Shown: positions 19,759 to 63,099 of the stretch, piece after piece | Layout: each line of letters opens with the position of its first letter | How positions within the stretch are numbered: the first letter of the stretch is position 1 | DNA from: an uncultured virus (IMG/VR IMGVR_UViG_3300050343_000259) | Taxonomy: Duplodnaviria; Heunggongvirae; Uroviricota; Caudoviricetes | Length of the DNA stretch: 64,000 bases | Strand: one strand, 5' to 3' | Virus record (IMG/VR): IMGVR_UViG_3300050343_000259 | Position numbers and translations under genes: made by a program | Notes under the pieces: generated by a model | The model's database searches: none | Told to the model about the DNA's origin: nothing | The model's input: the letters and a program-made list of their open reading frames with translations, nothing else

Positions 19759-21120
19759 TTACTCTTTTTCGATTGGGAAATCGTGCTTTTTGAATAATTT
19801 TCTTGCACCTTGCTCGGTATCAAGTTGATGCTGAACAAACTCCGGTGATGGTATAAATAGGTTTGTTCTTTGGAATGTACTTCCTACCATATCGAACTGA
19901 GGCATTTCCTCTACCTTTTCTTTTGAGAAGCAATCATAATTAATCATCATTTGCTTGATGTATATTAACTTTGATTTAATTTGGTCTTGCCATTTAGGAT
20001 TTTTTCCTGCATTTGAAGTAGATACCGCAGATACAGAATTTCCTGATTGATTAGAAAACTCTGATTTTGATGGTTTACCATCTTTTATCCATCTTAATTT
20101 TTCACTTAAATGCTTACTTCTTTTCATTAAGAAATCACAACCATACTTATCATATCCTTTTTCTAAACTATCTACGAAATCAGGAGTTATATAATCCTTG
20201 TTTAGTTTTGGTTGTTTTACTTTGGCAATCAAAGGAGTTGCTATATCTATATATACATAGTCTAGTATTAACCTTACCGTTGTTAAAGGAAGTAAATTAT
20301 ATTTTATTTTCGTAAAACCATCGAGTATGTACCCTTTTCCTTTTGGTGTAATAATGTAATTTTGAGATTGATATGGGTCAATAGTCGGTGTAAGTACCTT
20401 TTGATATACTTTACCTGTAGCTAATGTTCTATCAAATAAAAACGGCTCTAATATTTGTTCTTGATTTTCAGAAAATATTTGAAAATTCTTTATGTCGTAT
20501 GTCCTCTGAATTGTACTATACAAAAAGTCGTTGTAAGGGAAATTAGAAGTAGATATTACAGAAATATTGGGATTTGAAGGCAAAGTAGGTGCTGCGGCTG
20601 ATGCTGAAGGATATACTTGTATTGGTAGCCAAATTGCTCCTCCGGTTTGACCATTTAATAATATAGATTCTACCCCATAATTATACTGAGCAGTTGTAGC
20701 AATATTTTGTGCAGCTATATATGCAGGGTCTACAATAACTCTAATTACAAAACTTGTGGATTCAAGACCATAAGGTCCATCTACTGTCCATTGTCCTATT
20801 ACGGCAAATGGGTTAGCTGCATCATTTAAATATGTAACTAATTCAGCAGTAGATATATTTGATAATTTTGGGTCGGCAAGAGAACCAACTATAAATGTAC
20901 TACCATCTGCTCTAAAAATTCTTATTGACACAGAACCATTAGAGGCTACAAGTTTAGGATTCCACCAATCACCAAGAGTATATATAGGTGACCAATTAGA
21001 TTCAAAGTTCCAAACAGTTTCCGTGCTTGTATTGGGTGCACCTAAAGCTGAAGTTTCAAAAACTGAAAATTCTTGAACTTCTGTAGAATTATTTCTAAAA
21101 CTAAATACCGATGCATCCAT
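19759..21120 (-). CDS. Paralog of the candidate capsid protein, with insertion domain (putative minor capsid/turret protein)
   Basis: KVLTPTIDPYQSQ...YILDGFT matches KTLVPTIDPYQNQ...YKWDGFT of 53404-54153. Confidence 0.6.
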   Translation of the reverse strand: MDASVFSFRNNSTEVQEFSVFETSALGAPNTSTETVWNFESNWSPIYTLGDWWNPKLVASNGSVSIRIFRADGSTFIVGSLADPKLSNISTAELVTYLNDAANPFAVIGQWTVDGPYGLESTSFVIRVIVDPAYIAAQNIATTAQYNYGVESILLNGQTGGAIWLPIQVYPSASAAAPTLPSNPNISVISTSNFPYNDFLYSTIQRTYDIKNFQIFSENQEQILEPFLFDRTLATGKVYQKVLTPTIDPYQSQNYIITPKGKGYILDGFTKIKYNLLPLTTVRLILDYVYIDIATPLIAKVKQPKLNKDYITPDFVDSLEKGYDKYGCDFLMKRSKHLSEKLRWIKDGKPSKSEFSNQSGNSVSAVSTSNAGKNPKWQDQIKSKLIYIKQMMINYDCFSKEKVEEMPQFDMVGSTFQRTNLFIPSPEFVQHQLDTEQGARKLFKKHDFPIEKE

Positions 21121-21797
21121 TATTTGCTATTTTTTAATATTGTGAACCAATCTTGGGTATTATCATTTAAATATCCATTATTGTCTATACTTACAATTCG
21201 TTTTGTAACTCCATTACTGACATTACCTCCTATTACCTCTATATTTTTTCTTTTTCTATTAACATCTACAACTATATCACAATGTGATTTATAACTACTT
21301 TTTGTATCATAGTTTACACCCGTTTGTCTAGGATAACATATCAAATCTCCTTTTTCAGGTTTAACTTCGTGTACCTTATATCCTTTAAAGTCCGAATTAT
21401 TGTTTTGTTTTCTATTCTGAATAAAAGGTCTTATATAATTAGTATGTGCCGATGAATAAGGGAATTCGTTTCCTGCCCCACTCTTTTTCATTATGAATGA
21501 AATAAAAGCAGATGACCAAGGAGTTTTTCTATCACAACCATCATAATTTTTACCTGTTCCTTTTTTCCAATACTCTCCTACTCTATCTTTATATATAGGA
21601 GTACATTCAAACTCTCCTGATTCTTCTAATTTTCCTCCTACTATTACAGGGCTGCCCCATAGTTTCCACTCTTTATTAGCATTTGAAATAATAGCAGATT
21701 TGAATCCACTTAAAAGATACTTTTTAAACAAAATATATAGACCTGCCGATACGACAAGACCTATTCCAACCCCTATTGCTACCTGCCCCTTTTTCAC
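21120..21797 (-). CDS. DUF2272-like (CHAP/NlpC-related) protein with N-terminal TM
   Basis: PWSSAFISFIM...SAHTNYI...PEKGDLICY...SHCDIVV...IGGNVSN. Confidence 0.8.
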   Translation of the reverse strand: MKKGQVAIGVGIGLVVSAGLYILFKKYLLSGFKSAIISNANKEWKLWGSPVIVGGKLEESGEFECTPIYKDRVGEYWKKGTGKNYDGCDRKTPWSSAFISFIMKKSGAGNEFPYSSAHTNYIRPFIQNRKQNNNSDFKGYKVHEVKPEKGDLICYPRQTGVNYDTKSSYKSHCDIVVDVNRKRKNIEVIGGNVSNGVTKRIVSIDNNGYLNDNTQDWFTILKNSK

Positions 21798-31357: not shown

Positions 31358-31855
31358 TTATACTGTTGCAGGTTTCTTTTTTAATGCTACATATGCTACC
31401 ACTCCTATAACTAATGCCCCAACTCCTAAAGCAACATAGGTTAATGTTTTATCTTCTGTTTTTCTTGCAGCACTTTTCAAATTTGCTTCTTGAAACATTT
31501 TTTCAATATTAGCATCAAATTCTGCTGCTTGTTCATCTAATTTTTTCTGAGAACAGTCTAGTTCATCCCATTTATTTTTAAAGTCTAATCTTCTATTTTC
31601 TAAGGCTCTTGAATTTCTTGTGATTACTCTGTCTTTAGCACCACTATTAGCATTTTTAGTCAAATCCTTATCAATAACACCAATAGTATCATCAATGGTA
31701 TCACAATCCATCTCATCTTCTAACTTGTACTTATCGTTATATCTGTCTACTGCCTTGTTATATCTTTCTTTTTCTGCTTTTTTAGGTGCAAAAAAATCCT
31801 TGAACCAAGTTCCTCCTATAAATCCGGGGTGATTAAACCATAATTCTTCTTGCAT
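31358..31855 (-). CDS. tail-anchored helical protein, NHPGF family
   Basis: WFNHPGFIGGTWFKD; Cys pair; C-terminal TM. Confidence 0.8.
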   Translation of the reverse strand: MQEELWFNHPGFIGGTWFKDFFAPKKAEKERYNKAVDRYNDKYKLEDEMDCDTIDDTIGVIDKDLTKNANSGAKDRVITRNSRALENRRLDFKNKWDELDCSQKKLDEQAAEFDANIEKMFQEANLKSAARKTEDKTLTYVALGVGALVIGVVAYVALKKKPATV

Positions 31856-31859
31856 AATT

Positions 31860-32081
31860 TTATTTTTTTAATTTACTATATATTATTATTGCTACTATCG
31901 CAAGAGATATTCCTCCTACTAATTTTAAAACTGCACTTCCAATACTATTATCTTCTTCTTTAAATTCATCTATGCTTCCAACTGCATTAGAGTAATTTTC
32001 TTGTTTACATTTACCTCCGCACTTACATTCACCTCCATTTTGGCAAGGGTGATACTCTTTATTTTTGCATCCACAACTCAT
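31860..32081 (-). CDS. small Cys-rich (metallothionein-like) tail-anchored protein
   Basis: MSCGC...CQNGGECKCGGKC, YSNAVG, TM. Confidence 0.7.
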   Translation of the reverse strand: MSCGCKNKEYHPCQNGGECKCGGKCKQENYSNAVGSIDEFKEEDNSIGSAVLKLVGGISLAIVAIIIYSKLKK

Positions 32082-41577: not shown

Positions 41578-43008
41578 TTAGTAATCTCCGAACATAAATT
41601 CTCCATCAAAACCTCTTGTTGAGGAAGATATGTTTGTATTGTTTTTAATTTGTGTTTGTATTGGTTTAGTCGGTAACGGTGGCAATGTTGGACTCGTAGG
41701 TCTTGTCGGTCTTGTTGAACCTTGTTCGCAACATCTTTTTAATATATCGTATGCCTGATTATATGATAGTGTAAATCCAATACCTGCTGCATAAGTAGTA
41801 AATGTGCTTACTACATTTGGTATAGCAGTTTGTGGCTGACCGAATGCACTAGCATTTCTGAATTGTATGCAAAATTCTTCAGGTACATTTTCACAAGAAT
41901 AATCGCCTGATTGGTTAGATGGTTCACAACAAGAACAATAATCTGTTCCATTTGCTTGGTCATAGTACCAATTTCCTGTATTTGGATTCCAACTTACAGG
42001 GAAACTTCCATTTCCTGCTCTACATCTATCACAGTAATTGTTTTTACCATAGTTATAATTTGGCTGACCAATTGTTCCTCCCATTGCAAGATTTACCCAA
42101 TTTGGGTCATTACAAGGGTTATCACCTGTGTTACCATCACGACAACATTTTTGTAATAAACCATATGCTTGGTCATAAGTAAGAGTAACTCCATAACCAC
42201 TTGCGTAAGTAATAAATGGTATTACAGTTCCTTGCATATTAGGTGAATCTTTTCCAAATGCAAATGCTTGATTAAACTTAATGCACCATTCTTGTGTTAC
42301 AAATGAGCAATCAAAAGAAATCGGGTCATCTGTAGGCTCATCTATTGGTAATTCATAACCTTTACATAAGCATCTTTCAGCTAATAAAGCCTTTGCTTGT
42401 GCGTTGTCAATATTATACATTGATGCTACTGTAGCAGCTATTGTATTCATAGCACCGCCATTTCCTGAAATATAGGCTTGATAATATTTATCACAATATG
42501 CATCAACATTTGAATAATCATTTACAGGAGGTACTGAAATAGAAGGTCTTACAGGTCTTACAGGTTGAGCCGTTTGACCCAATGGTATTTCACGATTATA
42601 TACTTGAGGTACTGATGGCTCTATACCACCTGTACTTAAAAGCATATCTATGTAAGAAATTTTGTTTACTAGAAGTTGTTGCCATTTAGGGTATGTTCCT
42701 GCTGATGCTAATCCATTAAGTGTATTAACATTTACATTTCTTCTGTTTTGTAAAAATGAAACCCCAAACTTTTTAAATCCATCAATCATATTATTTTGGA
42801 ATATAACGGATGGTTGAATATCTTCTTTATCTTGATTTAGTGTGCCTATATTTTGACTTCCTGTACCTGCTTGTGCATAAGGGCTTTGAGATGGACAAGG
42901 TGTATTTCTTAATATTACCGTACCATCTGAATAAACACATTTAAATGTATATACATTATCATCTGAGCCTACAAATTGTCCTTGTCCTTGTCCTGTTAAT
43001 TCTGCCAT
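41578..43008 (-). CDS. Cys-rich repeat protein
   Basis: Probable start MAELTG at 43008; repeats C..V..E[WF]CI.F..A.AFG...Y.QAY..L..CC; ends RGFDGEFMFGDY. Confidence 0.8.
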   Translation of the reverse strand: MAELTGQGQGQFVGSDDNVYTFKCVYSDGTVILRNTPCPSQSPYAQAGTGSQNIGTLNQDKEDIQPSVIFQNNMIDGFKKFGVSFLQNRRNVNVNTLNGLASAGTYPKWQQLLVNKISYIDMLLSTGGIEPSVPQVYNREIPLGQTAQPVRPVRPSISVPPVNDYSNVDAYCDKYYQAYISGNGGAMNTIAATVASMYNIDNAQAKALLAERCLCKGYELPIDEPTDDPISFDCSFVTQEWCIKFNQAFAFGKDSPNMQGTVIPFITYASGYGVTLTYDQAYGLLQKCCRDGNTGDNPCNDPNWVNLAMGGTIGQPNYNYGKNNYCDRCRAGNGSFPVSWNPNTGNWYYDQANGTDYCSCCEPSNQSGDYSCENVPEEFCIQFRNASAFGQPQTAIPNVVSTFTTYAAGIGFTLSYNQAYDILKRCCEQGSTRPTRPTSPTLPPLPTKPIQTQIKNNTNISSSTRGFDGEFMFGDY

Positions 43009-43009
43009 A

Positions 43010-43504
43010 TTATATATTATTTTTATTACCAAAAATTCCTTTAGTGTAAGCATAGTATATACCACCTGCTGCTAAAAGCAATACAATTATAAGTTTGGTG
43101 TTACTACTACCCATTCCTGCTTCCAATACATCTCCCTCAGCCCCTGTTGTTTCAACTGAACTTGTCACTTCTGTATCATCAGAACTAGATGCGGCACAAT
43201 CCTTATAAAAATCAAGCCTATCTTGATTAGATGCAAATTTCATTGTCATAGCTGCATCTACACAACTTTGTGGAATTTTGGTTCTTGTCCCACCCTCTCT
43301 AAAACCTGCATTTGGGTTATTAGGATTACCACCTCTTCTATTAGGTGGATTTGTTCTTGCATTTATATAATCTTCAACCTCAGAGTTCATTTCTATTTCA
43401 CCTGATGCTACTGCTTCTTGAACTACCCTTATTTGGGCTTCACGAACTGCCGGTGAGTCAAATCTGCTTCCACCTTGATTGCTTCTTCCTCTTATAAATG
43501 CCAT
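43010..43504 (-). CDS. tail-anchored protein
   Basis: EAGMG + TM + YYAYTKGIF (same tail as 29567/29954). Confidence 0.8.
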   Translation of the reverse strand: MAFIRGRSNQGGSRFDSPAVREAQIRVVQEAVASGEIEMNSEVEDYINARTNPPNRRGGNPNNPNAGFREGGTRTKIPQSCVDAAMTMKFASNQDRLDFYKDCAASSSDDTEVTSSVETTGAEGDVLEAGMGSSNTKLIIVLLLAAGGIYYAYTKGIFGNKNNI

Positions 43505-49209: not shown

Positions 49210-49533
49210 TTAATAATCTCCAAACATAAAATCACTACTACCACCAAATCCAAACCACACATCTGAATTGGCTTTTGTTCCTCCACTTGCATTTAGCATA
49301 GATGGAGTAATATTTTGATAAGGGTCAATCACACTTGTATTAACTCTTGTAGATGTATTACCTGCAACTGCATTTCCTGTTGTAACACTATATTGTTCAG
49401 TTGGACCACCAATACCATCTCCACCAAAAATTGATGAATAATCGCATCCGCTTCCATCAGGTAAACTACATAAAGGATAGCAAGGGTCATTTGTAACATA
49501 TTGTCCGTTACATAACATTGTTTTGTTGCTCAT
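49210..49533 (-). CDS. small Cys-rich protein ending FMFGDY
   Basis: Four Cys at N-terminus; MLNASG. Confidence 0.75.
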   Translation of the reverse strand: MSNKTMLCNGQYVTNDPCYPLCSLPDGSGCDYSSIFGGDGIGGPTEQYSVTTGNAVAGNTSTRVNTSVIDPYQNITPSMLNASGGTKANSDVWFGFGGSSDFMFGDY

Positions 49534-50389: not shown

Positions 50390-50779
50390 TTACTTAGCAG
50401 CCGTACCGCCTTTTCTAATTGCATACCCAATTACAAATGCAGTTAAACCAATTCCTAAATATCCCATAACTAATTTGCCTACAGTCATTTTCATAACTCC
50501 TTTATTTTGTGACTCACCTGAAGCATTTTGGAATACTCCACCATCTTGCCACATAGTTTCACGATTTCTTCCTGATTGTTGCCAATTAGTACCCGTAAAA
50601 CTTCTAAAGTTTTGTCTTTGCCCTCTTGGACCATATCTTAATGAGCCTTGTGAAGGAACTCCTCTTGTTTTTGAAACATTAGTTCTAGGTACTTCAACAC
50701 AAATGCCATTTTGACATTCATAATTACAATTTGGACCACAAGTGGGGCACGAATAGGTACTACTACAATTAATTGCCAT
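50390..50779 (-). CDS. Cys-rich tail-anchored protein sharing a block with 27819-28271
   Basis: SFTGTNWQQSGRNRETMWQDGGVFQNASG. Confidence 0.8.
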   Translation of the reverse strand: MAINCSSTYSCPTCGPNCNYECQNGICVEVPRTNVSKTRGVPSQGSLRYGPRGQRQNFRSFTGTNWQQSGRNRETMWQDGGVFQNASGESQNKGVMKMTVGKLVMGYLGIGLTAFVIGYAIRKGGTAAK

Positions 50780-50790
50780 ATCTTTTTTTT

Positions 50791-51621
50791 TTATTTACTT
50801 GCTCTCAAATTAGGTGTACTATTCTGAGTGCAAAATTTATTTCTTTCAAAATTTGTTATAAACTGATTTAAAATGTCAAATCTTTCTTTATTTTGAGGTG
50901 TTGGAGTGTCCTTAAATGTTGTAAGGAAACTTTGATAAGCCTCTATTCTTGGATAACCAAGAGCCAAATAAATTAATAATCCATTCAAATCTGCTTCTGT
51001 TTCATCTTCCATATTCTCATTCAAATAAAAATGAGAAAACTCGTGTAATAGAATTGCCATTCTCATTGGAACAGTAAACTTTTTATAGTGTGCTTTGCTT
51101 ACTTGTATAATTCCTTTTGACTGACTAATTCTTGCAGGGGTTTGTATTACCAAACCTCTTTTTGTTCTAATATCATCAAAGTAATCTATTCTAAAATTAC
51201 CCTCATCTGAGATATATGTGCTTCCGTTTGGAAACTTTCCTGCACTTAATATTCCTGCGTTGTCTGAAAATTGTTGAGCAAAATTTGCAAAATCTCTTAT
51301 TTTTGGATTACTCCAATCAACACAATCCATTTTTCTTTCTAATGGTCTAGCATCTATTTTTACAACTTTAAATGATGCATCTTGACCCTTTTTCAAATTA
51401 CCGTTAGCTTTATTATATACACTTATAAGTGCTTCATAAGGAGATAAAGGCATTCTAACGAAGAATCTTTGCTTACCATCAATAGTTGCATATCTATTAG
51501 TATAATCAGTATTAGGCTTATTAATATCCTTAACTACTATCTGAATTTTTTGAGGACTATTTGTTACGACCTCTATCATAATAGTTAACGATTTTTGCTT
51601 TGTTTTAAATAAAATATTCAT
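50791..51621 (-). CDS. Zincin-like metalloprotease (HExxH)
   Basis: MAILLHEFSHFYLN...ETEADLNGL: HExxH plus downstream E-x-x-A-D ligand helix. Confidence 0.7.
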   Translation of the reverse strand: MNILFKTKQKSLTIMIEVVTNSPQKIQIVVKDINKPNTDYTNRYATIDGKQRFFVRMPLSPYEALISVYNKANGNLKKGQDASFKVVKIDARPLERKMDCVDWSNPKIRDFANFAQQFSDNAGILSAGKFPNGSTYISDEGNFRIDYFDDIRTKRGLVIQTPARISQSKGIIQVSKAHYKKFTVPMRMAILLHEFSHFYLNENMEDETEADLNGLLIYLALGYPRIEAYQSFLTTFKDTPTPQNKERFDILNQFITNFERNKFCTQNSTPNLRASK

Positions 51622-51749
51622 TTCTTAATTACCAAAATTATTAAACCTAATAATATGACTCCTCCTACTAACCTTAATCGAGTTACTGATATACCCTTTA
51701 TTTGCATATCCATTTCTTCTCTTTCTAAAGGTTGTAGTGCCACTTATCA

Positions 51750-52058
51750 TTACTTTTTAAAATTTATAATACTCTCCTTTGCTATGTAACCTCCGGCTAA
51801 TCCTCCGGCTAAAACTCCCATCCATACACTTTTCTTTCTCCATAATGATAGAATAGCCCCTAATACACTTCCTAATACTGCTCCTTTCAACATCTCTTTA
51901 GTGCTATCTTTAACTAAAGCTGCCTTTCCATCATCTACAATCGTACTGATACTTTCTTGTGTTTCAGTTGGCATTGTCATTCTGTTTGTGACATTATTTT
52001 GTCCATCAAAAGAAATTTCCTGAGCCTCATCAAAAAGATTTACTTCGCTATCAAACAT
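51750..52058 (-). CDS. membrane protein with glycine-zipper hairpin
   Basis: GAVLGSVLGAIL...GVLAGGLAGG. Confidence 0.75.
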   Translation of the reverse strand: MFDSEVNLFDEAQEISFDGQNNVTNRMTMPTETQESISTIVDDGKAALVKDSTKEMLKGAVLGSVLGAILSLWRKKSVWMGVLAGGLAGGYIAKESIINFKK

Positions 52059-52069
52059 ATTTCAAAGAA

Positions 52070-52768
52070 CTAATTTTGTACTGCCGGTGATGAACTTCCT
52101 TTTCTGCTATTATATAAAGCAAAACCTATAACTGCTAAAACCCCAACACCTAATAAAATAAATACAACTTTGCTAGAGCCTCCTAAACCTGCTTGAGTTG
52201 GCGGTAATACAGTTTGATTTGCACCTAATTCCATTTGCTGCAACATCAAATCTCTATTCATTCCTGCAAGTTCCAATTCGTGAGCCCTTTGCTTTCCTGC
52301 TTCTTTATAACTTTTATTTCCTTGCCAAATACCTGCAACTGTAGATAAGACTTGAATTCCTCCGTTTAACCATTGTCCGCCTGTTACTCCTGCACCTGTA
52401 CTTGCTGATGGAGCAGGAACTCCTCCTACTTGATTCATAAATCCATCTCTACTAGCATCCGTGTCCATTGGACTAATTTCTTCTGCACCTTCAATAAATG
52501 GCAATTGATTAGCTAAAACTAATTTCATAATTCCAATCCTTACACATTCACTTGTTAAATTGTATGCTACTGCCGTAACTAATTCAACTTTTCCTGCTCG
52601 TGAAGAAACTTTCACACCACAGTTAATAAGTGTTTTTCGTACTAAAGCCGGTCTACCCTCTATCACTTTAGCAACTTCGGATAACATTAACTCTCTCGTT
52701 ATAGCCATATCTTTTGTTTTATTTATTGCTTTAAAATTTTCTTTAAAATTATGATGCTCATATCTCAT
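52070..52768 (-). CDS. tail-anchored protein (30236 family)
   Basis: FMNQVGG, amphipathic segment, QAGLGG + TM. Confidence 0.8.
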   Translation of the reverse strand: MRYEHHNFKENFKAINKTKDMAITRELMLSEVAKVIEGRPALVRKTLINCGVKVSSRAGKVELVTAVAYNLTSECVRIGIMKLVLANQLPFIEGAEEISPMDTDASRDGFMNQVGGVPAPSASTGAGVTGGQWLNGGIQVLSTVAGIWQGNKSYKEAGKQRAHELELAGMNRDLMLQQMELGANQTVLPPTQAGLGGSSKVVFILLGVGVLAVIGFALYNSRKGSSSPAVQN

Positions 52769-52769
52769 A

Positions 52770-53279
52770 CTACTTTTTTGCTATTATATATCCTACCGCA
52801 AAACCAACTGCTAATAAAAGAATTGGAGATGTTTGCATTTCTTTCATTTTTCTATCTCTTGCTCTCCTATCTCTTTTTAGCTTTTCTCTAAGTATTTCTT
52901 TTTTTACTTCTTTTATTTCACTTACTACCTCTTTTGCATCAAAATTAGAACTTGATGTATTAGGCTCAAATGAAGATGGAGCCTCCGGTTTAAATGGGGT
53001 TGGCTCTACAACTTCAGGTTCAGCAAATCCCGGTGTTCTACCTGTTGCATAAGCGAAATCTTTATCTGAACCAAATGATTTAGTGAAAGACTCTAATAAA
53101 GACTTATCAGGATGAATTTCACTAATATCTTGTAAGGCAACTTTTTTGTATTTTCTTACAATTATTTTTAATCTGCTAATTAATTCACTTATACTGTTGG
53201 TAGCTTGAAAACCATAATTACTTAAAAGTTCATTAGCCCCTGAAGAATTATTATGTGCTATGTATGTGTATAAATTCAT
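52770..53279 (-). CDS. tail-anchored protein
   Basis: EIHPDK motif, C-terminal TM + KK. Confidence 0.8.
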   Translation of the reverse strand: MNLYTYIAHNNSSGANELLSNYGFQATNSISELISRLKIIVRKYKKVALQDISEIHPDKSLLESFTKSFGSDKDFAYATGRTPGFAEPEVVEPTPFKPEAPSSFEPNTSSSNFDAKEVVSEIKEVKKEILREKLKRDRRARDRKMKEMQTSPILLLAVGFAVGYIIAKK

Positions 53280-53317
53280 TTTTATCTTTTTTGTATATTT
53301 TTAATTTATCTTTTAGT

Positions 53318-53370
53318 AAAAAAAAATGGGGCTCGAAGAAAATGCCTTTGCATCTACCTCTGCCCCATTT
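53318..53370 (-). terminator. Intrinsic terminator after the candidate capsid gene
   Basis: AAATGGGGC...GCCCCATTT stem followed by T9 on - strand. Confidence 0.75.
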
Positions 53371-53403
53371 AATATCTAATCTCTAAGAATTAATAACTTA
53401 ATA

Positions 53404-54153
53404 TTAACCCTGTAATGCACGAGCAACTCCTTGACCAAGAACAATCTTGTCTTGTCTTACAACATTTGGATTACCATAACCACGAGCAATTGAATTGCCT
53501 GTTAGAGCACGACCTTGAGAAACAGTTTCAGATGGGAACAAGTAGACTTTTAAAGTCGCTTTTGCTGCAATACTGTTAACTGTTAATGTAGTAAAGCCAT
53601 CCCACTTATAGGTATGCTTTAATACAGTAATGTCTGTTTGGTTTTGGTAAGGGTCAATTGTAGGAACAAGAGTTTTTTGTTGTTGATTACCATTAGAGTC
53701 AACTACTTTTACTACGATAGTTTCTAGGACCTGTGTTGAGCCTCCATCACTTTGTAGGTAAGTTAATCCAACCACGAATGGTTTAGATGAACTTTGCCAT
53801 AAAAATTCAAGATAAGTTACACCTGAAATAGCCATATTATATAGGATATTTGCCGTGTTACCTGCTTCACCTGCCGGAATACCTCCACCTGCTGCGATTG
53901 CGGTTACCTTAGTTATCGTGTTATATGCTCCACCAATTTCAACAGATGCTACATCTGCTGCCGTAGAGTTATATAATGAGATAATGTAAGGTTGTGATGA
54001 ACTAGCATCAGCCGAACCCATTGCGTTTAAGTATTCTTCTTCAGAACCACCAAAGTCAAAAGCATCATCCCAATCATTTACACCATTAGCTGACATAAAT
54101 TCGTTTGAAATGTTTTCTTCTGCATCAGAGAAATAACGGTTTAAATTTTCCAT
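53404..54153 (-). CDS. Candidate major capsid protein (single jelly-roll-like) with acidic N-terminal extension
   Basis: Beta-strand-rich; codon choice looks high-expression; own terminator and structured leader; paralog at 19759; near packaging ATPase. Fold is inferred, not computed. Confidence 0.55.
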   Translation of the reverse strand: MENLNRYFSDAEENISNEFMSANGVNDWDDAFDFGGSEEEYLNAMGSADASSSQPYIISLYNSTAADVASVEIGGAYNTITKVTAIAAGGGIPAGEAGNTANILYNMAISGVTYLEFLWQSSSKPFVVGLTYLQSDGGSTQVLETIVVKVVDSNGNQQQKTLVPTIDPYQNQTDITVLKHTYKWDGFTTLTVNSIAAKATLKVYLFPSETVSQGRALTGNSIARGYGNPNVVRQDKIVLGQGVARALQG

Positions 54154-54188
54154 TTTTTCTTTAATTTTATTTGGTTAAACAATTATAA

Positions 54189-54345
54189 TTCATAAACTTT
54201 TTATGAACTAAACAACATAAACTCCCCTTAACGGGTCACTCTTTTTACAAAACTTAATAATTATCTTGTTATCAATTATCAACCTTTAGGAGCCGTGGGC
54301 TCAACTAAAAGGACCATATCAAACTGACTGCCCTTGGGACTTACC
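54189..54345 (-). promoter_or_regulatory. Structured leader upstream of candidate capsid gene
   Basis: Hairpins at 54283-54312 (CTTT[T]AG/GAGCC-cac-GGCTC/CTAAAG) and 54189-54207 (TTCATAAA-aag-TTTATGAA). Confidence 0.45.
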
Positions 54346-54356
54346 ATCAATAATTA

Positions 54357-54485
54357 CTATGCTTCACCATCTTTGTCTAGGAAATTCTTTTCAACCACAT
54401 TTGCTCCAATGATACCTATCATTACACCAACTGCGACTCCAAGAATACCCATCAACATAGACTTTTTTCCTTTTCCTTCAATCAT
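54357..54485 (-). CDS. small membrane protein (42 aa) preceding the capsid gene
   Basis: MIEGKGKKSMLMGILGVAVGVMIGIIGANVVEKNFLDKDGEA. Confidence 0.7.
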   Translation of the reverse strand: MIEGKGKKSMLMGILGVAVGVMIGIIGANVVEKNFLDKDGEA

Positions 54486-54671
54486 CTTACTAAAGATTTT
54501 AAATTAAACTTAGGCACAAGCCATTGTTAAATACAAAAACAAATTTATAAACATATATAGGTTTATTAGCTTGTTGTTATGTAAATAAGTGTAACCGGTT
54601 TGGTTGAAGTTATTTTAGAAAATACTATTTAACCCTGAAAATTTGATAAAAAAGTTGAAATTAAGTTGAAA

Positions 54672-54908
54672 TTAAAATGATTTTTTAACTTCATTGACTA
54701 TTACACCATTCATAATAGAAAATATTCCTACTATTAATGCTAACTTAACTAACTCTTTAGAATCCGGTAATTTGAAGTTATTTGGATTTGTCACTTCGCC
54801 TTCTAATTCTTTTGTATGATTTTTACCCATATTAAAATGGATAATTGCTTCAGTCATAAATAGAACAAAAGTTGTGCCTCCAACAATAAGACCTAGATTC
54901 TTTTTCAT
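54672..54908 (-). CDS. two-TM protein
   Basis: TTFVLFMTEAIIHFNMG...LALIVGIFSIMNG. Confidence 0.75.
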   Translation of the reverse strand: MKKNLGLIVGGTTFVLFMTEAIIHFNMGKNHTKELEGEVTNPNNFKLPDSKELVKLALIVGIFSIMNGVIVNEVKKSF

Positions 54909-54912
54909 TGGA

Positions 54913-54920
54913 CAAAGATA
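54913..54920 (-). promoter_or_regulatory. TAnnTTTG promoter element
   Basis: TATCTTTG 4 nt upstream of ATG 54908. Confidence 0.55.
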
Positions 54921-54942
54921 TATAAAAATATATTATAAAAAA

Positions 54943-56417
54943 TTAATTCAATATTTTTTCAATTTCCATTCCTGTTAAAACATACTTAATATCAGGATTT
55001 ATAGCAATATGATATTCTTTATAAAGCCCCATAGCTATTGCCATAGAAACGGAAGGATTGCAATAAAACTTACTACATTTTTTTATCATCCAAGCCATAT
55101 CATATAAGTCTTTGACTTTATCACCATAAAAAATTAAATTATCTTTTACATCATATTCTTTTAAAAGGGCTTCATATTCATCTTTTAAACCAATAAAATA
55201 GTTTTTACCTTTTTGTTCTTTTATGCATTTTTCCCAATTAAAATCTACACCATCTCTGTACCTCTGTGTTATATGGAAAACATTAAATTTTCCTTTTGGA
55301 ATTTCTACATTATTATTTAATTCAGGAGTATTAAATTTAAAATCATCCTTTAATAATAAATAAGGAAATGGGGTGTCTTGAGGATTTTCTTTCCAAACTC
55401 TAAAATATGAAAACACTACTTGTTCTTCAAAAAGTTTTGGCGAAAGCCTAAAATAATCTAAATCATAATCTAACTCTACTGAATTATCATATTTTACTTT
55501 AACACCTGTGTCGATTTCAGATGTTGAACCTTTTTTGTATGTTTTTTCTCCAAAACCATCTTTATATAAATTTACATTATTTATATAAGGTTGACATTTA
55601 AGCAGCCTGTATAAAGATTGATATTGCTTATTGGTGGCAGAAAATTTATGTTTATTTTTTAAATAAATATCTCCTCCTCCTTTTTTAATAATTAATGGCA
55701 ATGAAAATATTACATCTCCTAAACTTCCGCTATGTAAAAAACTTTGAACTCTTTTTTTAGAAAAATTTTCTACCCCTACTTCTTCTATAAATTCTTCTGT
55801 GCTCTTTATATTCATCCACTCTTCTCTGTTTTTTGAGAAATTATCCCAATCAAGAGTTATTTTACCTTTGATAGCCGGTTTTTTCTTTTGGGCAAATGTA
55901 ATCATACCAACCCCTGTATCTGTATCAATTACTGACATTTCTACATCTGTTCTTTCATTTCTAACTCGAACAAATGCTTTCCAAACATCTCCATTCCAAT
56001 AACTTGTTACTGCCGGTACTTTTTGATGGTCCTCTTCTAAAGGCAAACAATCGTGCATTAAAATTGTACCCCCCTTTATTTAAACAATCTATAGAATTAT
56101 TTATATCTCTATATACTTGCTCATTTAGGTGTAATCCATCAATAAATATAATATCATATTTGTGATTGTGATTTTTAAAATATTCATCTGATGTCATTCT
56201 AAAATCTACATCTATTTCTGATGGTTTCCATTTTTTATCAGATGTACTTTTAGCAACAGAAAATTCCGCTAAAAATCCTTCATCTAAAGGGTCACATCCT
56301 TTTTTATCATCTATTATAATTTGATTGAAACATTCTTTATCCCTTACCCCTATTTCGAGATATGTTTTGTAATTGTTTTTTTTTAATCAATGCGTTTATA
56401 ATGTCAAATCTTTTCAT
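54943..56417 (-). CDS. Class I SAM methyltransferase fused to a GT9-like glycosyltransferase; two +1 homopolymer frameshifts
   Basis: Correcting T9 (56376-84) and C6 (56069-74) gives MKRFDIINALIKKNNYKTYLEIGV...IFIDGLH...GGTILMHDCLP...HSGSLGDVIFSLP. Confidence 0.8.
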
Positions 56418-56437
56418 TTATTTATTTTTTAAAATAT

Positions 56438-57256
56438 TTATGTTAGGAAATATTGCTGCCTTATTCTAGCCCTTACTTGTCTAATAGCTTCATCTCTATC
56501 AATTTTAGAGCCATCACTTAAACTTTTTTTATTAATAGCAGGTTTTACTACGGAATTAAAATTTTTAGATAAGTATTCATCTATTCCATTATTTATAATT
56601 GCTTCAGACATTTTTCCTTTTAATTTTTCTTCATCTAAATCTACATACATAAAATATCTAGGATTATCATTAAAATACTGTGTGTTTACTATATTTTCAG
56701 CTATACTAAACATTTCGTATTTATCAGGAAATTTATTTCTATGTCTTTCAATACTATCTGAGTTTTTATGAAACCTCAACCAATTAGCATTTTGCCATAC
56801 TTTAGTTGTTATTCTTCCAATACTCTGAAAATGCATAATAATATCTAAGTCTGTGTGTCTGTTGGAGCAAATAGCACCTACAATATCTGTTGGAAGATGG
56901 TCACCTACATACTTATTAATGTCCTCAATCAATAACATACCCCCTCTAAAATAGTGTAGTATATCCCATAATTGATTTGCTATTTCTTTTAAAGTAAGTC
57001 TTATTCCTGTTTGCTCATTAAAAGGTCTTACCCTTCTTATTTCTGCGGTAGGCATAACAGAAAATCTTACTAAATCTTTCATAGATATAGCTTTATAATC
57101 TACAAACTCATCATTAACATCTAAAATTAATACTCTACGAGGAAGAACCCCTTTTGATGGATTTCCATAAACATAGGATTCAATAAGTATTTTAGTTTGA
57201 TAAGTTTTACCAATCCCTTTTTTTCCTACTGCCATTCCTAGCTTTGGTTCTCTCAT
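56438..57256 (-). CDS. A32/P9-like (FtsK-HerA superfamily) ATPase, candidate genome-packaging ATPase
   Basis: N-terminal Walker A GKKGIGKT, strand VLILDVNDEF, Walker B LLIED, RH..LDIIMHFQ (Arg finger and Q sensor); compact, no TM. Confidence 0.8.
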   Translation of the reverse strand: MREPKLGMAVGKKGIGKTYQTKILIESYVYGNPSKGVLPRRVLILDVNDEFVDYKAISMKDLVRFSVMPTAEIRRVRPFNEQTGIRLTLKEIANQLWDILHYFRGGMLLIEDINKYVGDHLPTDIVGAICSNRHTDLDIIMHFQSIGRITTKVWQNANWLRFHKNSDSIERHRNKFPDKYEMFSIAENIVNTQYFNDNPRYFMYVDLDEEKLKGKMSEAIINNGIDEYLSKNFNSVVKPAINKKSLSDGSKIDRDEAIRQVRARIRQQYFLT

Positions 57257-57257
57257 T

Positions 57258-57884
57258 CTATAATTTTTTAAATGTAGCAGTTAATATATTTGGTGTGTAA
57301 TTTTTATCAATTCTAACTTTATCTTCTATGTTAGTATAATTAATAATTTCAAAACCCATTCTTTTCATAAATTTTTCTAATGATTTTTCATCAAAGTGAT
57401 ACAAATGTTCATCAGGCTTTCTATGTTTCCAATTATTAAACCATTCATCATCTGATGCCCCCCAACACCAAGGAAGAGATATAACTGCGTATTTACACTT
57501 TAAATCTTTTACAAACTCAATATCATTAAAATGCTCTAAACTGTCAAAAAATGTAATCACATCCACCTCAACAGAGGTTATATCTTTTACAAATTTTATA
57601 TTATCTTTTAAAGGATATGCAGGTTCTACATCATTTCCATAAAGAACATCTATTGAGTTTTTACACGCATCTAAAAAATCTCCATTGCCATATCCAACAT
57701 CCATTAACGATTTTGGAATATGACCTATTGAGCCAATAATATATCCTAATCTTAGGTTAAGTATATTTCCCCTGTCATTAAATACTGAATACCTGCTATC
57801 TGAATATTCTTTAGAATATATATACGGTTTGCAATTTATTTGCTTAACTACTCCATCTATATTTTTTTTATAGTTAGCTAACAT
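57258..57884 (-). CDS. SAM-dependent methyltransferase
   Basis: LMDVGYGNGDFL...ITFFDSLEHF...EHLYHF. Confidence 0.85.
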   Translation of the reverse strand: MLANYKKNIDGVVKQINCKPYIYSKEYSDSRYSVFNDRGNILNLRLGYIIGSIGHIPKSLMDVGYGNGDFLDACKNSIDVLYGNDVEPAYPLKDNIKFVKDITSVEVDVITFFDSLEHFNDIEFVKDLKCKYAVISLPWCWGASDDEWFNNWKHRKPDEHLYHFDEKSLEKFMKRMGFEIINYTNIEDKVRIDKNYTPNILTATFKKL

Positions 57885-58316
57885 TTATTTTTTTTTATAG
57901 TCATTCACTTTTTTTTCACTTTCACCTGCTTCAAATCGTTTCATAAAATCTTCTTTGTAATAAATATATGTGTCTACATAAACATTTTTTTGAGATACGA
58001 TTTCTATTTTAATATTATGAGCATCTATTTTTGCCTGTGCTACATCTAATAGCATTTTATTATCCTCAATAGGATGTGCAATATATTCTTTAAGACATTT
58101 TTCTTTATCTTCTAAAAGTTCAACATATTTTTTTCGCAATTCTAACTGCCCCTCTAATCTTTCTTTTTGACCCTTCATAGAAGTATCTCTCTTCTTATCT
58201 CTTTCGCCTATATATTTTGTTATATCTCCGGGCATTTTCCACTTAAAGTCTTTATAATGAGTTTTTTTTGGCTCTTTCCTTAAATACTCTTTTCCGTTGT
58301 TTGCAAAGTGATTCAT
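57885..58316 (-). CDS. coiled-coil hypothetical protein
   Basis: 143-aa ORF. Confidence 0.7.
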   Translation of the reverse strand: MNHFANNGKEYLRKEPKKTHYKDFKWKMPGDITKYIGERDKKRDTSMKGQKERLEGQLELRKKYVELLEDKEKCLKEYIAHPIEDNKMLLDVAQAKIDAHNIKIEIVSQKNVYVDTYIYYKEDFMKRFEAGESEKKVNDYKKK

Positions 58317-58336
58317 ATTTTAATTGTGTTTATTTT

Positions 58337-59044
58337 TTAATTATAATCTTTTCCAAATTCTCCCCATTTTGAATTCTTATGTTTACATATTATACCTGTA
58401 TGAGCAAAATATTTTTGACCATTACGATATAAATCGTTTATGTAAACCACATCAGGAAACCATCTTTGCCCTTCTATATATCTGAAATCATACTTTTCAA
58501 ATACCGGTCTTGCAATCAAAATGCACCCTAAACCTGCTGACAATGTTTGAACAGGCTTTCCATCTATCATAAAGTTGTTACTTGCCCCTGAAATAGAACA
58601 TCTATGGTCATCTAAGTCTGATGATATTCTATTCAACATAGGTTGCCTATTCTCGTTATCGTTTAACTGATACAAGGCACCTATTACGGGCTTTCTTTCA
58701 AACATTAAGTCCTGAATTACATCAGGTGGAGGAAACACATCTGTTTCGAGATGAAGTATGTAGTCGTAATTCTTTCTTAAAGCATACTGCCTACACAACT
58801 CGTGACTAATCGCTAGTCTTTTTAAAACAGAATCTTTGTTATCTTCTTCAGTTACATTAATACAATCAAAACCTTTGGTTTTAATATATTCACTAAAGTC
58901 CTTTGTCAAAGAATTGTCCGCAAGAAAAACATCATATTCAGGATAGGTAAAGTTTTTTACATTTTCTGCCCACTCATCAAAGCAATAATCTTTTATATCT
59001 GATTGTGGTCCGCAGACTAAAACCTTTTTCCTTCTGTATTTCAT
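58337..59044 (-). CDS. GT-A fold (GT2-like) glycosyltransferase
   Basis: Probable start MKYRRK at 59044; YDYILHLETDVFPP...AGLGCILI...CKH. Confidence 0.8.
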   Translation of the reverse strand: MKYRRKKVLVCGPQSDIKDYCFDEWAENVKNFTYPEYDVFLADNSLTKDFSEYIKTKGFDCINVTEEDNKDSVLKRLAISHELCRQYALRKNYDYILHLETDVFPPPDVIQDLMFERKPVIGALYQLNDNENRQPMLNRISSDLDDHRCSISGASNNFMIDGKPVQTLSAGLGCILIARPVFEKYDFRYIEGQRWFPDVVYINDLYRNGQKYFAHTGIICKHKNSKWGEFGKDYN

Positions 59045-59289: not shown

Positions 59290-60459
59290 TTATTTTTCTT
59301 CAGCTTCCATAGCATCTGACATATCGAAACCTTTATTTAAATCTACATCTTCAACTGTAGCTTCTATAATTGTTGTTTTACTTTCTTCTTCTGTTGGCTC
59401 TAACCTCATTTTTTTTCTAGGTCTGCCTCTTCTTCTTTTTGGAACTACGGTTATTTCATCTTCCATATCATCGTGAAAAGTTCCTTCATCTTCATTCGGA
59501 GAATTCATTTCCTGTTCTACAGTTTGTTTTATAGGGTTTGCAATTTCTTCTTGTTTCGGAAGCCCTCCAAACACCTCTTCTTCTCTTAAAGCAGATGGTG
59601 CTTCAGGCTCCGGAGTTGGTGGTGGCGGAGGTGGTGATTGGGGCTTAGGAGGATTTGGTGGAGGTGACTGAGGAGGAGGACTTTGTGGTCTTGGTCCTGT
59701 TGCTCCTTGAGAACTAGAGTTAAACTCAGGATTTACTTGAGCATTATACATTTCTGTCATCATTTTCAACGATTGTGTAAGTGATTTTTTGAATGTATAA
59801 AGTTGTGCTCCTTTTTGAACTATATCTTTTCCAAATGCTACCATTAAGAATTGCTCATCACTCAAACCATATCCTCTTGAAGAGAATACTCTAATCATTA
59901 CGGGTCTTACACTTTCTACAAACTCATCATCAACTACTAATACTTCAGTTACCTGTCTATTATATTCTCCAATAAACTCTTGAACTGAAATTGTTTGAGT
60001 CTGAGAAATAGGGATTCGCATATCAGGATTTATCTCTCCCTTGATAGCTTTTTTAACAATTTCTTCTTCACTTAATGAAAAGTATTTTTGTCCAAATGTA
60101 TGTGCAACTTTATATCCTTCTAAAAAAGTGTCTACCATCAAACTAGCACTTTCATCGGCATCTTTTTTACTATAATCTTGCAGGTCGTTATTTACAAAAG
60201 GGTCATCGCTTCCAAATCCTGATTTAGGTTTTGAGGGCTTTTCCTTTTTTGAAGCAGGTTTATCATCTTCATAATCATCCTCTTGTAATTCATCTAAATT
60301 CGGTTGCTGATACATTGGCTCCGGAATGCTTGTTATTGAAGCAGGGTCATAAGATACCTTGGGTTTTGTATATTCCCTTTGAACTACCGGCTCATCAAAT
60401 GGGTTGAAGTTTTCAGGAGTAGATAATTCCGAATAATCCGGTGTAGTGTTTTCAGACAT
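59290..60459 (-). CDS. Acidic/Pro-rich protein with AT-hook
   Basis: Probable start MSENTTP at 60459; poly-Pro; KRRRGRPRK. Confidence 0.8.
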   Translation of the reverse strand: MSENTTPDYSELSTPENFNPFDEPVVQREYTKPKVSYDPASITSIPEPMYQQPNLDELQEDDYEDDKPASKKEKPSKPKSGFGSDDPFVNNDLQDYSKKDADESASLMVDTFLEGYKVAHTFGQKYFSLSEEEIVKKAIKGEINPDMRIPISQTQTISVQEFIGEYNRQVTEVLVVDDEFVESVRPVMIRVFSSRGYGLSDEQFLMVAFGKDIVQKGAQLYTFKKSLTQSLKMMTEMYNAQVNPEFNSSSQGATGPRPQSPPPQSPPPNPPKPQSPPPPPPTPEPEAPSALREEEVFGGLPKQEEIANPIKQTVEQEMNSPNEDEGTFHDDMEDEITVVPKRRRGRPRKKMRLEPTEEESKTTIIEATVEDVDLNKGFDMSDAMEAEEK

Positions 60460-60460
60460 A

Positions 60461-60898
60461 TTATTTATTATTTTCAACGAATATCTTAATATCGTTGTTT
60501 ATTTTAATTAATTTATTATTTTGTTTTTTTTCTTCAGGAAATTTCGGATTCAAATTTTCCATATAACGCATATCTCTGCTTACAGTCGCTTTATTTAATT
60601 TAAGATTTTGAGATATTTGAGATTGTGACCAATGTAGATGTTCTCTGATTAGTAATACTAACATTGCTCGTGCTTTTGTTCTAACACCAAACTTCCTGCT
60701 TTTGCCTAGAAACAGTTCACTCTCTGATATGTTGAAATTTTTGCAAGTTGTTTTGATAATATAAGCTAAAAGATAATCTTGATTTTCATATCCTTCTTTT
60801 AGTCCTTTATCTATAATTTTTTTTGCCTTTTCGATTCCTTTCTCATCAACGAGTTTCATTAATTTTTTAATGAGTTCAAAAGAATTGGTGTGTTTCAC
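60461..60898 (-). CDS. DnaA C-terminal-like HTH DNA-binding protein
   Basis: IIKTTCKNFNISESEL...SRK...ARAMLVLLIREHLHWSQSQISQNL...ATV. Confidence 0.75.
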   Translation of the reverse strand: MKHTNSFELIKKLMKLVDEKGIEKAKKIIDKGLKEGYENQDYLLAYIIKTTCKNFNISESELFLGKSRKFGVRTKARAMLVLLIREHLHWSQSQISQNLKLNKATVSRDMRYMENLNPKFPEEKKQNNKLIKINNDIKIFVENNK

Positions 60899-62130: not shown

Positions 62131-63099
62131 TTATTTAGGACCAAACGGAGGCATACCTCCTTCAGGTGCTTTAGGAAGCCCTCCAAATACCTCATTTTCA
62201 TTTACTGTTTTAGGTGGAGCAAATCTATTAGGATTTTGTCCTTGATTGCCTTGAGGACTGTTTTGTACTGCATTAGAGATTCCATAATTTTGTTGTGAAT
62301 CAAAATAATTTTCTGTCCCCGGATTATTATTTACATAATTCTTTATTGGGCTTTTGCTATCTCCTATACTTTCTGCAATTTTACTTGCATTAAAATATTT
62401 ATTTTTAAAGTTGTCATCGTTAATAATACCCTGAGCCAATTGCTTACCAAAAACTTCATCAGAAGGAAAATGAACTCCTAAAATTATTCTTGATTTAGAG
62501 CATTTATCAGCAAATTTAGTTAGCATATCTTGTTGGTCGGGATAACGAAAAGATAATATCTCTGCAAATACCCTGCTTTGTACTGTATGACCTGAAGGGT
62601 ATGAAGGTGACTGAGCAGATACCGTAGGCATTGGGTTCAAAGGAAACTTATAAATATTTGCAAGTTGATAAGGTCTTATTCTATTATAATAAAATTTTAA
62701 CTTCATTATAATTGGATTTATATCTTTATATAATTCTTTTACAAAACCTTCAGGATTTGAAACTCCGCATTTATATGCAGTATCAAGAAACATTCCTTCT
62801 AAATCTTCATCAAATTTGATACTTAACTCCACAACTTTATCGTGTTGGAGTTTTTCCATATCTTTTTGTATATCCTTTAACTCTTTAGCGGCATAAGTAC
62901 CATCATTATTTGGATAGGGTTTATCCATAAAATAATTTGCTATGTAATCAAAATCTCCTTCTTTTCTAATAAGTATATCTTGTGCTGCATTAGGATTTCC
63001 ATATGTTAGATTATTAACAGGAATTAGCCCATACTTAGTTTCAGGTGTAGAAGTATTAATTGTTTGCTGAGTTCTTTTTCTTGTTCTTGTTCTAGCCAT
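62131..63099 (-). CDS. PAP2/vanadium-haloperoxidase-superfamily phosphatase
   Basis: KFYYNRIRP, SPSYPSGH, SRIILGVHFPSD. Confidence 0.9.
   Translation of the reverse strand: MARTRTRKRTQQTINTSTPETKYGLIPVNNLTYGNPNAAQDILIRKEGDFDYIANYFMDKPYPNNDGTYAAKELKDIQKDMEKLQHDKVVELSIKFDEDLEGMFLDTAYKCGVSNPEGFVKELYKDINPIIMKLKFYYNRIRPYQLANIYKFPLNPMPTVSAQSPSYPSGHTVQSRVFAEILSFRYPDQQDMLTKFADKCSKSRIILGVHFPSDEVFGKQLAQGIINDDNFKNKYFNASKIAESIGDSKSPIKNYVNNNPGTENYFDSQQNYGISNAVQNSPQGNQGQNPNRFAPPKTVNENEVFGGLPKAPEGGMPPFGPK

Follow-up and report, generated by a model that had tools for sequence, protein, structure and literature searches.

Which protein forms the shell of the uncultured virus IMGVR_UViG_3300050343_000259 is the question raised by one gene in its DNA, analysed here as a single stretch of 64,000 nucleotides (nt; the window). 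This gene, open reading frame (ORF) A (53404..54153, minus strand), encodes a candidate major shell protein of 249 amino acids (aa) with a predicted jelly-roll core, while ORF B (19759..21120, minus strand, 453 aa) encodes a paralog of it that carries an inserted domain and a helical domain at its C-terminus. In the original prediction, made from the sequence alone, both proteins were taken for a pair of capsid proteins like that of Halopanivirales, a major one with a cleaved leader and a decorated minor one. The present analysis confirms the paralogy and argues against the paired capsid. ORF A is the best available candidate for the major shell protein, a reading for which we consider the chances to be about even.

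ORF A, its conservation and its expression signals

ORF A is the best candidate for the shell because it is a beta-sandwich protein of the conserved gene core, is the neighbour of an ATPase gene, bears signals of high expression and has charged flexible ends. Such ends are found in many jelly-roll capsid proteins. A relative of ORF A is encoded on 62 viral contigs of IMG/VR, across which the order PAP2-family protein, 395-aa protein, ATPase, ORF A, membrane proteins and HExxH protein is kept; ORF A itself is present at 60 of the 62 loci and is the second most conserved gene of the core. The P-loop ATPase (56438..57256, minus strand, 272 aa), a candidate packaging ATPase and the sole conserved NTPase of the module, occurs at 58 loci with up to 58% identity and usually lies directly upstream of ORF A. 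None of the core genes encodes more than about 400 aa, and ORF A is the sole conserved, soluble, capsid-sized beta-sandwich protein among them. Between 27 and 55 kb, a membrane segment is likewise missing from three other proteins of at least 200 aa: the HExxH protein, one of 221 aa and a Cys-rich one of 495 aa.

AlphaFold monomer models, made for two proteins, ORF A and ORF B, agree with the fold that had been supposed, both being predicted as jelly-roll sandwiches. The ORF A model (mean confidence score, pLDDT, 66; core blocks 75-87) contains a helix at residues 4-19, a disordered stretch at 18-51 (pLDDT below 50) and nine strands between residues 56 and 207, together with a helix at 114-123. 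On the minus strand, the gene divides into a leader (residues 1-46; 54016..54153), in which the first helix is followed by an acidic disordered linker running to YLNAMG, a jelly-roll core (residues 53-209; 53527..53997), flanked by the invariant SQPYI and YPSE and alignable to ORF B, and a C-terminal arm (residues 210-249; 53407..53526), modelled with low confidence and with a short terminal helix. ORF A and ORF B are the sole long frames at their positions, the overlapping plus-strand frames being shadow ORFs of 40-82 aa.

The family is large and stands apart from described proteins. At least 870 homologs of ORF A were found at E ≤ 0.001 among 90%-identity clusters, most of them in metagenomes of marine or other aquatic origin, the contigs reaching about 100 kb, and 379 clusters at 50% identity matched it. 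Within an alignment of 50 homologs, identity is 44-50% and 36 positions are invariant; a K/R-rich C-terminal tail is present in 27 of these 50 and absent from ORF A of the window. Neither ORF A nor ORF B matched a Pfam family at E up to 1 or a PHROG below E 0.2. The ORF A profile gave four unrelated matches among all PDB chain sequences (E 0.022-1.2), tblastn against 50,697 phage records gave none, and the ESM Atlas search returned no match over 0.78. No longer fused form of ORF A was found at E ≤ 0.001, which is a weak negative result, the ORF B family being likewise missed at that database size.

Expression signals surround the gene on both sides. Directly after ORF A lies a terminator-like hairpin followed by nine U (53318..53370, minus strand; -26.4 kcal/mol, z -4.28), which begins 34 nt past the stop codon and was equalled in stability by none of 200 shuffles; a simple terminator scan, restricted to loops of 3-8 bases, had missed it, and it was revealed by folding. 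A hairpin with a T-run was found within 150 nt downstream of the ORF A homologs at 56 of 57 loci, as against 19 of 58 for the ATPase gene, 5 of 56 for the gene of the 395-aa protein and none of 51 for the HExxH gene. Upstream, the homologs are preceded by a gap with a median of 335 nt, and at 58 of 60 loci the motif TAnnTTTG, which we take to be the -7 box of Bacteroidota promoters, stands 180-291 nt before the start codon (background 0.27 per 330 nt). The loci behind these promoter and terminator counts are related, so that the counts do not represent independent events. In the window, the region upstream of ORF A (54154..54547, minus strand) holds a 42-aa membrane ORF (54357-54485) and, upstream of the latter, the motif TAAATTTG at 54540-54547, a lone occurrence that is not significant by itself. 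The positional conservation of TAnnTTTG implies a putative untranslated leader of about 200-250 nt. No Shine-Dalgarno sequence was found before ORF A or its homologs, and the 203-nt region upstream of ORF A does not fold unusually (z -1.82). Codon usage (effective number of codons 40.1, against a median of 36.3) is uninformative, its bias being AT-driven. As judged from these signals, ORF A is in the relatives a conserved and apparently single-gene expression unit, for which very high expression is predicted.

The extra leader that had been described for ORF A is indeed present: its 46 residues end in YLNAMG and include 12 D/E and one K/R (net charge about -11). Across the 50 homologs Y7 and G24 are invariant, F8, A11 and G46 are kept in at least 90%, and SQPYI at the junction between leader and core is invariant. 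Since it is conserved, the leader probably has a function, and it could be either removed or retained as an assembly arm. Removal by the conserved HExxH protein is a speculative idea, with the chances leaning somewhat against it. This candidate metalloprotease (50791..51621, minus strand, 276 aa; 51 of 62 loci) has H193, E194, H197, E207 and D211 invariant; its matches to SprT, M56 and M48 are all weak, and the PDB sequence search gave no meaningful match.

ORF B and the other copies of the domain

The likeness of ORF A and ORF B is far beyond chance, as judged from three kinds of comparison. BLASTP aligned residues 107-193 of ORF A with 189-275 of ORF B (40.8 bits, E 2e-8, 28 of 88 identical); the profile of the 50 ORF A homologs, compared with all ORFs of the window, retrieved ORF B at E 8.4e-16, the runner-up standing at E 0.012; and the two families, that of ORF B comprising 35 sequences, were matched by profile-profile alignment with a probability of 98.7% and E 3e-16 over 108 columns. 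ORF A and ORF B are true paralogs, as the original prediction had claimed, and the significant alignments cover both of the motifs kept in the two families, PTIDPYQ (with few substitutions) and DGFT. The common block runs from strand 3 to the end of the sandwich and corresponds in ORF B to residues 186-291 (20248..20565, minus strand), homologous at the widest to residues 94-209 of ORF A.

As a sequence match, the correspondence that had been proposed between VFSFRNNST and YIISLYNST in the first strand lacks significance, yet it fits the strand positions of both models. The ORF B model (mean pLDDT 72.8; sandwich strand blocks 67-84) has strands at residues 2-10 and 16-22, a separate domain at 34-170, the strands of residues 186-291, whose counterparts in ORF A lie at 103-207, and helices between 313 and 442. 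The paralog does begin, without a leader, at the first strand; the first strands of ORF A are modelled at residues 56-62 and 68-74, and on these models the first two strands of both proteins appear equivalent. The insert, which had been estimated at about 150 aa, occupies residues 23-185 of ORF B (20566..21054, minus strand), between sandwich strands 2 and 3. It comprises 163 residues, against 28 in ORF A (75-102), a net gain of about 135, and is of variable length among the 35 aligned homologs; it is predicted as a separate mixed alpha/beta domain (pLDDT 75-94 over residues 31-170). It was not bridged by hhalign between the two families, in either local or global mode. Moreover, ORF B ends in a domain on which the original prediction was silent (residues about 292-453; 19762..20247, minus strand), mostly helical and with conserved Cys.

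The start codon of ORF B shares one base with the stop codon of a gene for a membrane-anchored DUF2272/CHAP cell-wall hydrolase (21120..21797, minus strand; Pfam DUF2272 2.6e-29, CHAP 4.3e-5; membrane segment at residue 4), itself preceded by the gene of a CarboxypepD_reg-like membrane protein. ORF B lies 32.3 kb from ORF A and has 55 homologs, against more than 870 for ORF A; no B-type gene was found within 10 kb of ORF A at the 62 loci. The presence of contigs of 89,259 and 68,694 bp in both homolog lists suggests that A and B homologs co-occur on contigs. ORF B is not a core gene. Because it is distant from ORF A, translationally coupled to the hydrolase gene, poorer in homologs and replaced by other paralogs in more distant relatives, the model of two co-assembling major capsid proteins does not fit, and this part of the original prediction finds no support in its present form. 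A vertex, penton-like, accessory or entry role is more likely for ORF B than that of a second lattice protein or major capsid protein.

Outside the window, at least one extra copy of the domain was found in seven of eight related genomes. The 102-kb relative G001, rated 100% complete by CheckV, carries an ORF A ortholog, proteins of 174, 154 and 154 aa, and a protein of 397 aa (L071:17225-18418) made up of two complete tandem A domains (residues 58-205 and 226-394; hidden Markov model (HMM) E 2.7e-36 and 1.1e-32). Two matched stretches also occur in three of the 150 cluster representatives listed (320-397 aa). A copy of about 155 aa is present in each of G002, G003, G004 and G007, a 320-aa form occurs in G006 and one of 237 aa in G008, and G005 has no extra copy. 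The neighbours of the short paralogs in three relatives gave no informative match to genes of the window. Among the 72 other window ORFs of at least 90 aa, comparison with the A family revealed no further paralog, the best match being one of 22 columns around IDPYQ with 43% probability.

Some smaller proteins of the window share motifs or copy number patterns with those described above. A 107-aa ORF (49210-49533, minus strand) has the motif IDPYQN and a C-terminal FMFGDY that is also found in the Cys-rich 495-aa protein (41578-43065, minus strand). The 137-aa protein at 28291-28704 (minus strand) is laid out like ORF A, with SQPYVV after an acidic N-terminus, and shows a weak match to a PHROG family named virion structural protein. 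Finally, a 165-aa tail-anchored protein (31358-31855, minus strand) represents a second multi-copy family, with 120 matches over the 62 loci and G001, about two copies per genome.

The particle and the competing readings

As regards the capsid role that had been claimed, ORF A is a strong shell candidate by its ATPase neighbour, the surrounding block of membrane proteins, the promoter motif with terminator and the lack of any detected rival capsid type. In the window, no family of major capsid, portal, tail tube, sheath or tape-measure proteins was found with PHROGs (64 ORFs) or Pfam (66 ORFs), and no large terminase apart from a weak PHROG match of the ATPase; no double-jelly-roll protein was recognised there by the HMM scans. 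In G001, with all 129 of 129 ORFs scanned, no capsid, portal, large-terminase, tail-tube, sheath or tape-measure family was found. The block at 27-55 kb is rich in membrane proteins: the hydropathy scan detected a membrane-like segment in 34 of its 57 ORFs but in 8 of the 48 ORFs outside it, and many of the 34 have a single C-terminal anchor, a set of tail-anchored proteins unusually large for a phage. Two of them lie directly downstream of ORF A (52070..53279, minus strand; 169 and 232 aa), the 169-aa protein being found at 34 of 62 loci by BLAST and giving 57 matches by iterated search. As the core also contains a lipid phosphatase-like PAP2 gene (62131..63099, minus strand; Pfam PAP2 4.7e-9; 52 of 62 loci), this gene content points to a particle that probably carries a lipid membrane filled with viral proteins.

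The fold searches support a jelly roll and nothing more specific. For ORF A, viral matches include a nepovirus capsid domain (Z 6.4), the penton protein of PR772 (6.2), a capsid chain of phiCjT23 (5.8), PBCV-1 (5.8), EhV-201 (5.6) and the major capsid protein (MCP) of faustovirus (5.4), and in a second fold alignment small icosahedral virus capsid proteins make up 27 of the 50 matches listed. Foldseek found none at E ≤ 0.001 in the PDB; against viral models its best matches were C1q-type domains (E about 1e-4), and the TNF/C1q matches as a whole have E 1e-4 to 1e-2 with template-modelling scores of 0.17-0.26. For the sandwich of ORF B, the same nepovirus domain scores Z 6.5 and the STIV turret protein Z 6.2; ORF B also weakly matches the minor capsid (penton) proteins of virophages (mavirus, E 8.7e-5; Qinghai Lake virophage, 6.9e-4); its C-terminal domain has generic helical-hairpin matches only.

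With a fold of this generality, other functions have to be weighed. ORF A might be a virion protein outside the lattice, for instance the base of a penton, a protein of an outer layer, or one that serves as cement or decoration, the true major capsid protein being then an unannotated protein of the module or encoded outside the window. Single-jelly-roll pentons are indeed among its matches (P31 of PR772, Z 6.2, and of PRD1, 4.8), as is the cement protein of phage KHP40 (Z 5.0-5.1); the window may be incomplete, and the proteins modelled are two, ORF A and ORF B. In a penton or cement protein, however, one would expect neither the module's clearest single-gene unit of promoter and terminator nor the second rank in conservation among the core genes, and no other conserved soluble protein of capsid size is seen at 27-55 kb; we regard this alternative as unlikely, though it deserves serious attention. 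That ORF A is the head of a fibre or spike, a host-binding trimer of TNF/C1q type whose paralogs would be alternative receptor binders, is improbable. Foldseek ranks C1q and TNF domains highest, along with the collagen-tailed C1q proteins of giant viruses; a protein of collagen repeats, longer than 1467 aa, is encoded in the window; and the domain, like receptor binders, is present in several copies and varies from genome to genome. Receptor binders, though, tend to be the least conserved proteins, whereas ORF A is highly conserved (44-50% identity, 36 invariant positions), has no collagen or coiled-coil stalk and adjoins the ATPase gene and not a cluster of fibre genes.

Very improbable, in our estimation, is a function outside the virion, with ORF A as an abundant acidic chaperone of nucleoplasmin type for small basic DNA-binding proteins, or as a DNA mimic. 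The cores of nucleoplasmin, NPM1, HDT and FKBP39 do match it (Z 4.7-5.3), its leader is strongly acidic, and a conserved lysine-rich protein of 47 aa is encoded at 29253-29396 (22 of 62 loci). Nevertheless, these Z scores are not above those of capsid proteins, the acidic tract follows the core in nucleoplasmins and precedes it in ORF A, and the location in a block of structural and membrane proteins, together with the decorated paralogs, fits a virion role better.

Several points weigh against ORF A as the lattice protein of a tailless virus. All of its fold matches are generic, with Z below 8 (4.6-7.0), the structure aligner places the carbohydrate-binding module of a bacterial protein, AlgX, first (Z 7.0), capsid proteins score no better than the cores of TNF/C1q and nucleoplasmin, and no Halopanivirales capsid protein is among the matches listed. 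The ATPase cannot be firmly placed in the FtsK/HerA packaging clade. Its Walker A (GxxGxGKT) and LLIED Walker B motifs are invariant, and its Pfam matches are weak (AAA_22 in 27 of 29 family members, DUF87/HerA in 20, Zot in 8), the window copy reaching 19.8 bits for DUF87/HerA against a cut-off of 23.2. The only PHROG matched, phrog_2666 (24 of 29 members; window copy E 1.8e-4), is named terminase large subunit; PDB sequences gave nothing past the P-loop, and tblastn against the 50,697 phage records gave no match even at E 5. Furthermore, HMM scans can miss divergent HK97 proteins, and G001 contains a 160-aa ORF matching short tail fiber/adhesin families as well as lysozyme-type baseplate hub domains, so that a very divergent tailed virus remains conceivable. 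The window may not be the whole genome, and we know of no precedent for a single-jelly-roll lattice around 60-100 kb of DNA.

If ORF A is nonetheless the shell protein, the following picture can be proposed. ORF A would be the major and most abundantly made protein of the shell and would build the capsid lattice of a probably tailless virion, the lipid membrane of which would be packed with tail-anchored viral proteins. Its flexible ends, that is, the acidic leader and, in about half of the family, a basic tail, may tie the subunits to one another, to the membrane or to the DNA, and the HExxH protein may cut off the leader. ORF B would be a lineage-specific paralog with its inserted domain facing outward, co-expressed with the membrane-anchored cell-wall hydrolase and probably acting at the vertices or in entry.

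The remainder of the genome offers further observations. Beyond about 7.2 kb, every gene up to the window's end lies on the minus strand, with about 30% GC, and the viral genes span at least 57 kb. Genes recognised with PHROGs and Pfam include those for RecT, a PD-(D/E)XK nuclease, RusA, methyltransferases, an ArdA fusion, an Amidase_3 endolysin, a peptidoglycan-binding protein, the PAP2 protein, the DUF2272/CHAP hydrolase and a complete Fe/Mn superoxide dismutase (25702-26373, minus strand; Sod_Fe_C 1.2e-32, Sod_Fe_N 4.9e-21). At the other end, the open-ended collagen-repeat ORF (2-4405, plus strand, more than 1467 aa; Pfam Collagen E 1e-211) has a GC content of about 0.50 and a strong purine skew, against 30% GC elsewhere in the genome. 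Homologs of the gene that follows, 6442-7194, occur on two related viral contigs, for which reason this end is probably viral too.

The core also comprises an acidic, proline-rich protein with an AT-hook-like RGRPRKK (59290..60477, minus strand, 395 aa; 56 of 62 loci), for which the ESM Atlas holds unnamed viral clusters only, and four further small proteins with 53-58 matches each in iterated searches over the 62 loci and G001. The 395-aa protein and the PAP2 protein have EVFGGLPK in common, near their C-terminal regions. The motif [F/Y/M]A(K/R)GG occurs nine, three and three times in the proteins of 32081-34348, 34351-35388 and 22498-24804 (all minus strand), where it divides segments of 60-130 aa. 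Both of the C-termini examined end in a membrane anchor, and the third protein is the fusion with the antirestriction protein ArdA. The three look like polyproteins or like cargo domains strung together by a recurring linker or cleavage site. A single protease specificity for AKGG, FGGLP and the NAMG/S junction of ORF A was considered and dropped, as the positions do not align.

Hosts, occurrence and known virus groups

The proposed lineage would consist of uncultured double-stranded DNA viruses, large (about 40-100 kb) and infecting aquatic bacteria, probably Bacteroidota. Among related contigs, those of 79-102 kb have completeness ratings of 94-100%. Bins of four genome-collection contigs with a relative were assigned to Flavobacteriales, Sediminibacterium, Ignavibacteria and, weakly, Legionellales, and one NCBI record with an ORF A homolog belongs to a Gammaproteobacteria bin. 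On the basis of the bins, the promoter motif, the missing Shine-Dalgarno sequence and the CarboxypepD_reg-like domain, Bacteroidota are the likely host phylum, with moderate confidence. DNA nearly identical to the window (99% of sampled words) is present in 14 DNA runs from 11 studies, dated 2015-2025. Two of these runs are labelled viral metagenome, and the window itself may stem from any one of them all. Of the words sampled from 50500-58500, 22-70% are contained in six RNA runs. The Atlas clusters of the 395-aa core gene bear the label Uroviricota, an indirect sign that automatic pipelines file these contigs with tailed phages. A full-text literature search, judged on titles and abstracts, found no description of this lineage.

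A wider proposal, tentative and with more against it than for it, is that these contigs represent an undescribed major lineage of tailless, membrane-containing viruses of 40-100 kb with Bacteroidota as hosts, whose shell would be made from one repeatedly duplicated single-jelly-roll family, its members being ORF A with the leader, ORF B with the insert, the forms of about 155 aa and a tandem form. Were this so, the tandem form would be a living step from single to double jelly roll, independent of or basal to the PRD1-adenovirus lineage. If ORF A is the shell protein, widespread aquatic viruses would be neither tailed phages nor members of any described jelly-roll family, the size range of membrane-containing tailless phages would be extended several-fold, and ORF A would serve as a marker gene for counting these viruses in metagenomes. 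The duplicated and tandem copies would then also offer a testable case for the origin of double-jelly-roll capsid proteins.

Among known groups, Caudoviricetes are characterized by an HK97-fold capsid protein, a portal and a large terminase, which were not found in the window or in G001 by PHROG and Pfam scans, the weak match of the ATPase to phrog_2666 being the sole related signal. The capsid proteins of small icosahedral viruses (como-, bromo- and picorna-like viruses and satellites) resemble ORF A in their eight- or nine-strand sandwich and disordered charged ends. Those viruses, however, are RNA or small DNA viruses of eukaryotes, and with Z 4.6-6.4 and an identity of 4-10% nothing is implied beyond the fold.

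In Halopanivirales, the MCP genes adjoin each other and the ATPase gene. The virus studied here resembles Halopanivirales in having homologous jelly-roll paralogs, both predicted sandwiches and one of them decorated, a candidate capsid gene beside a small ATPase gene and many virus-encoded membrane proteins. Halopanivirales, with the families Sphaerolipoviridae, Simuloviridae and Matsushitaviridae, are tailless, have an internal membrane and possess two vertical single-jelly-roll MCPs, and the MCPs and the putative ATPase are among their most conserved structural proteins; the sphaerolipoviruses of the ICTV profile have genomes of 28-31 kb (PMC12643093). Simuloviridae have genomes of 16-19 kb, and the host of phage P23-77 is Thermus. 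In the present viruses, by contrast, the two jelly-roll genes are not adjacent and the second, ORF B, lies outside the core; viral genes span no less than 57 kb in the window, and relatives reach 102 kb, against 16-31 kb (at least twofold larger); the hosts are bacterial, probably Bacteroidota, and not haloarchaea or Thermus; and GC is about 30%, against 67-68%. No likeness to VP4/VP7 or VP16/VP17 appeared as a sequence match to PDB chains or among the fold matches listed. The parallel with Halopanivirales holds only in part.

PRD1-type viruses (Tectiviridae, Corticoviridae, Autolykiviridae and FLiP-like viruses) have an internal membrane and a small packaging ATPase, and combine a double-jelly-roll capsid protein with a single-jelly-roll penton. 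The genome of the present lineage is 3 to 10 times larger than theirs, and no double-jelly-roll protein is recognised in the window. The resemblances lie in the small ATPase, the jelly-roll proteins, the many small membrane proteins and the cell-wall hydrolases, which are virion-associated in PRD1-type viruses. Moreover, the P31 pentons of PR772 and PRD1 and a chain of phiCjT23 are among the fold matches of ORF A, and ORF B resembles pentons with an inserted domain.

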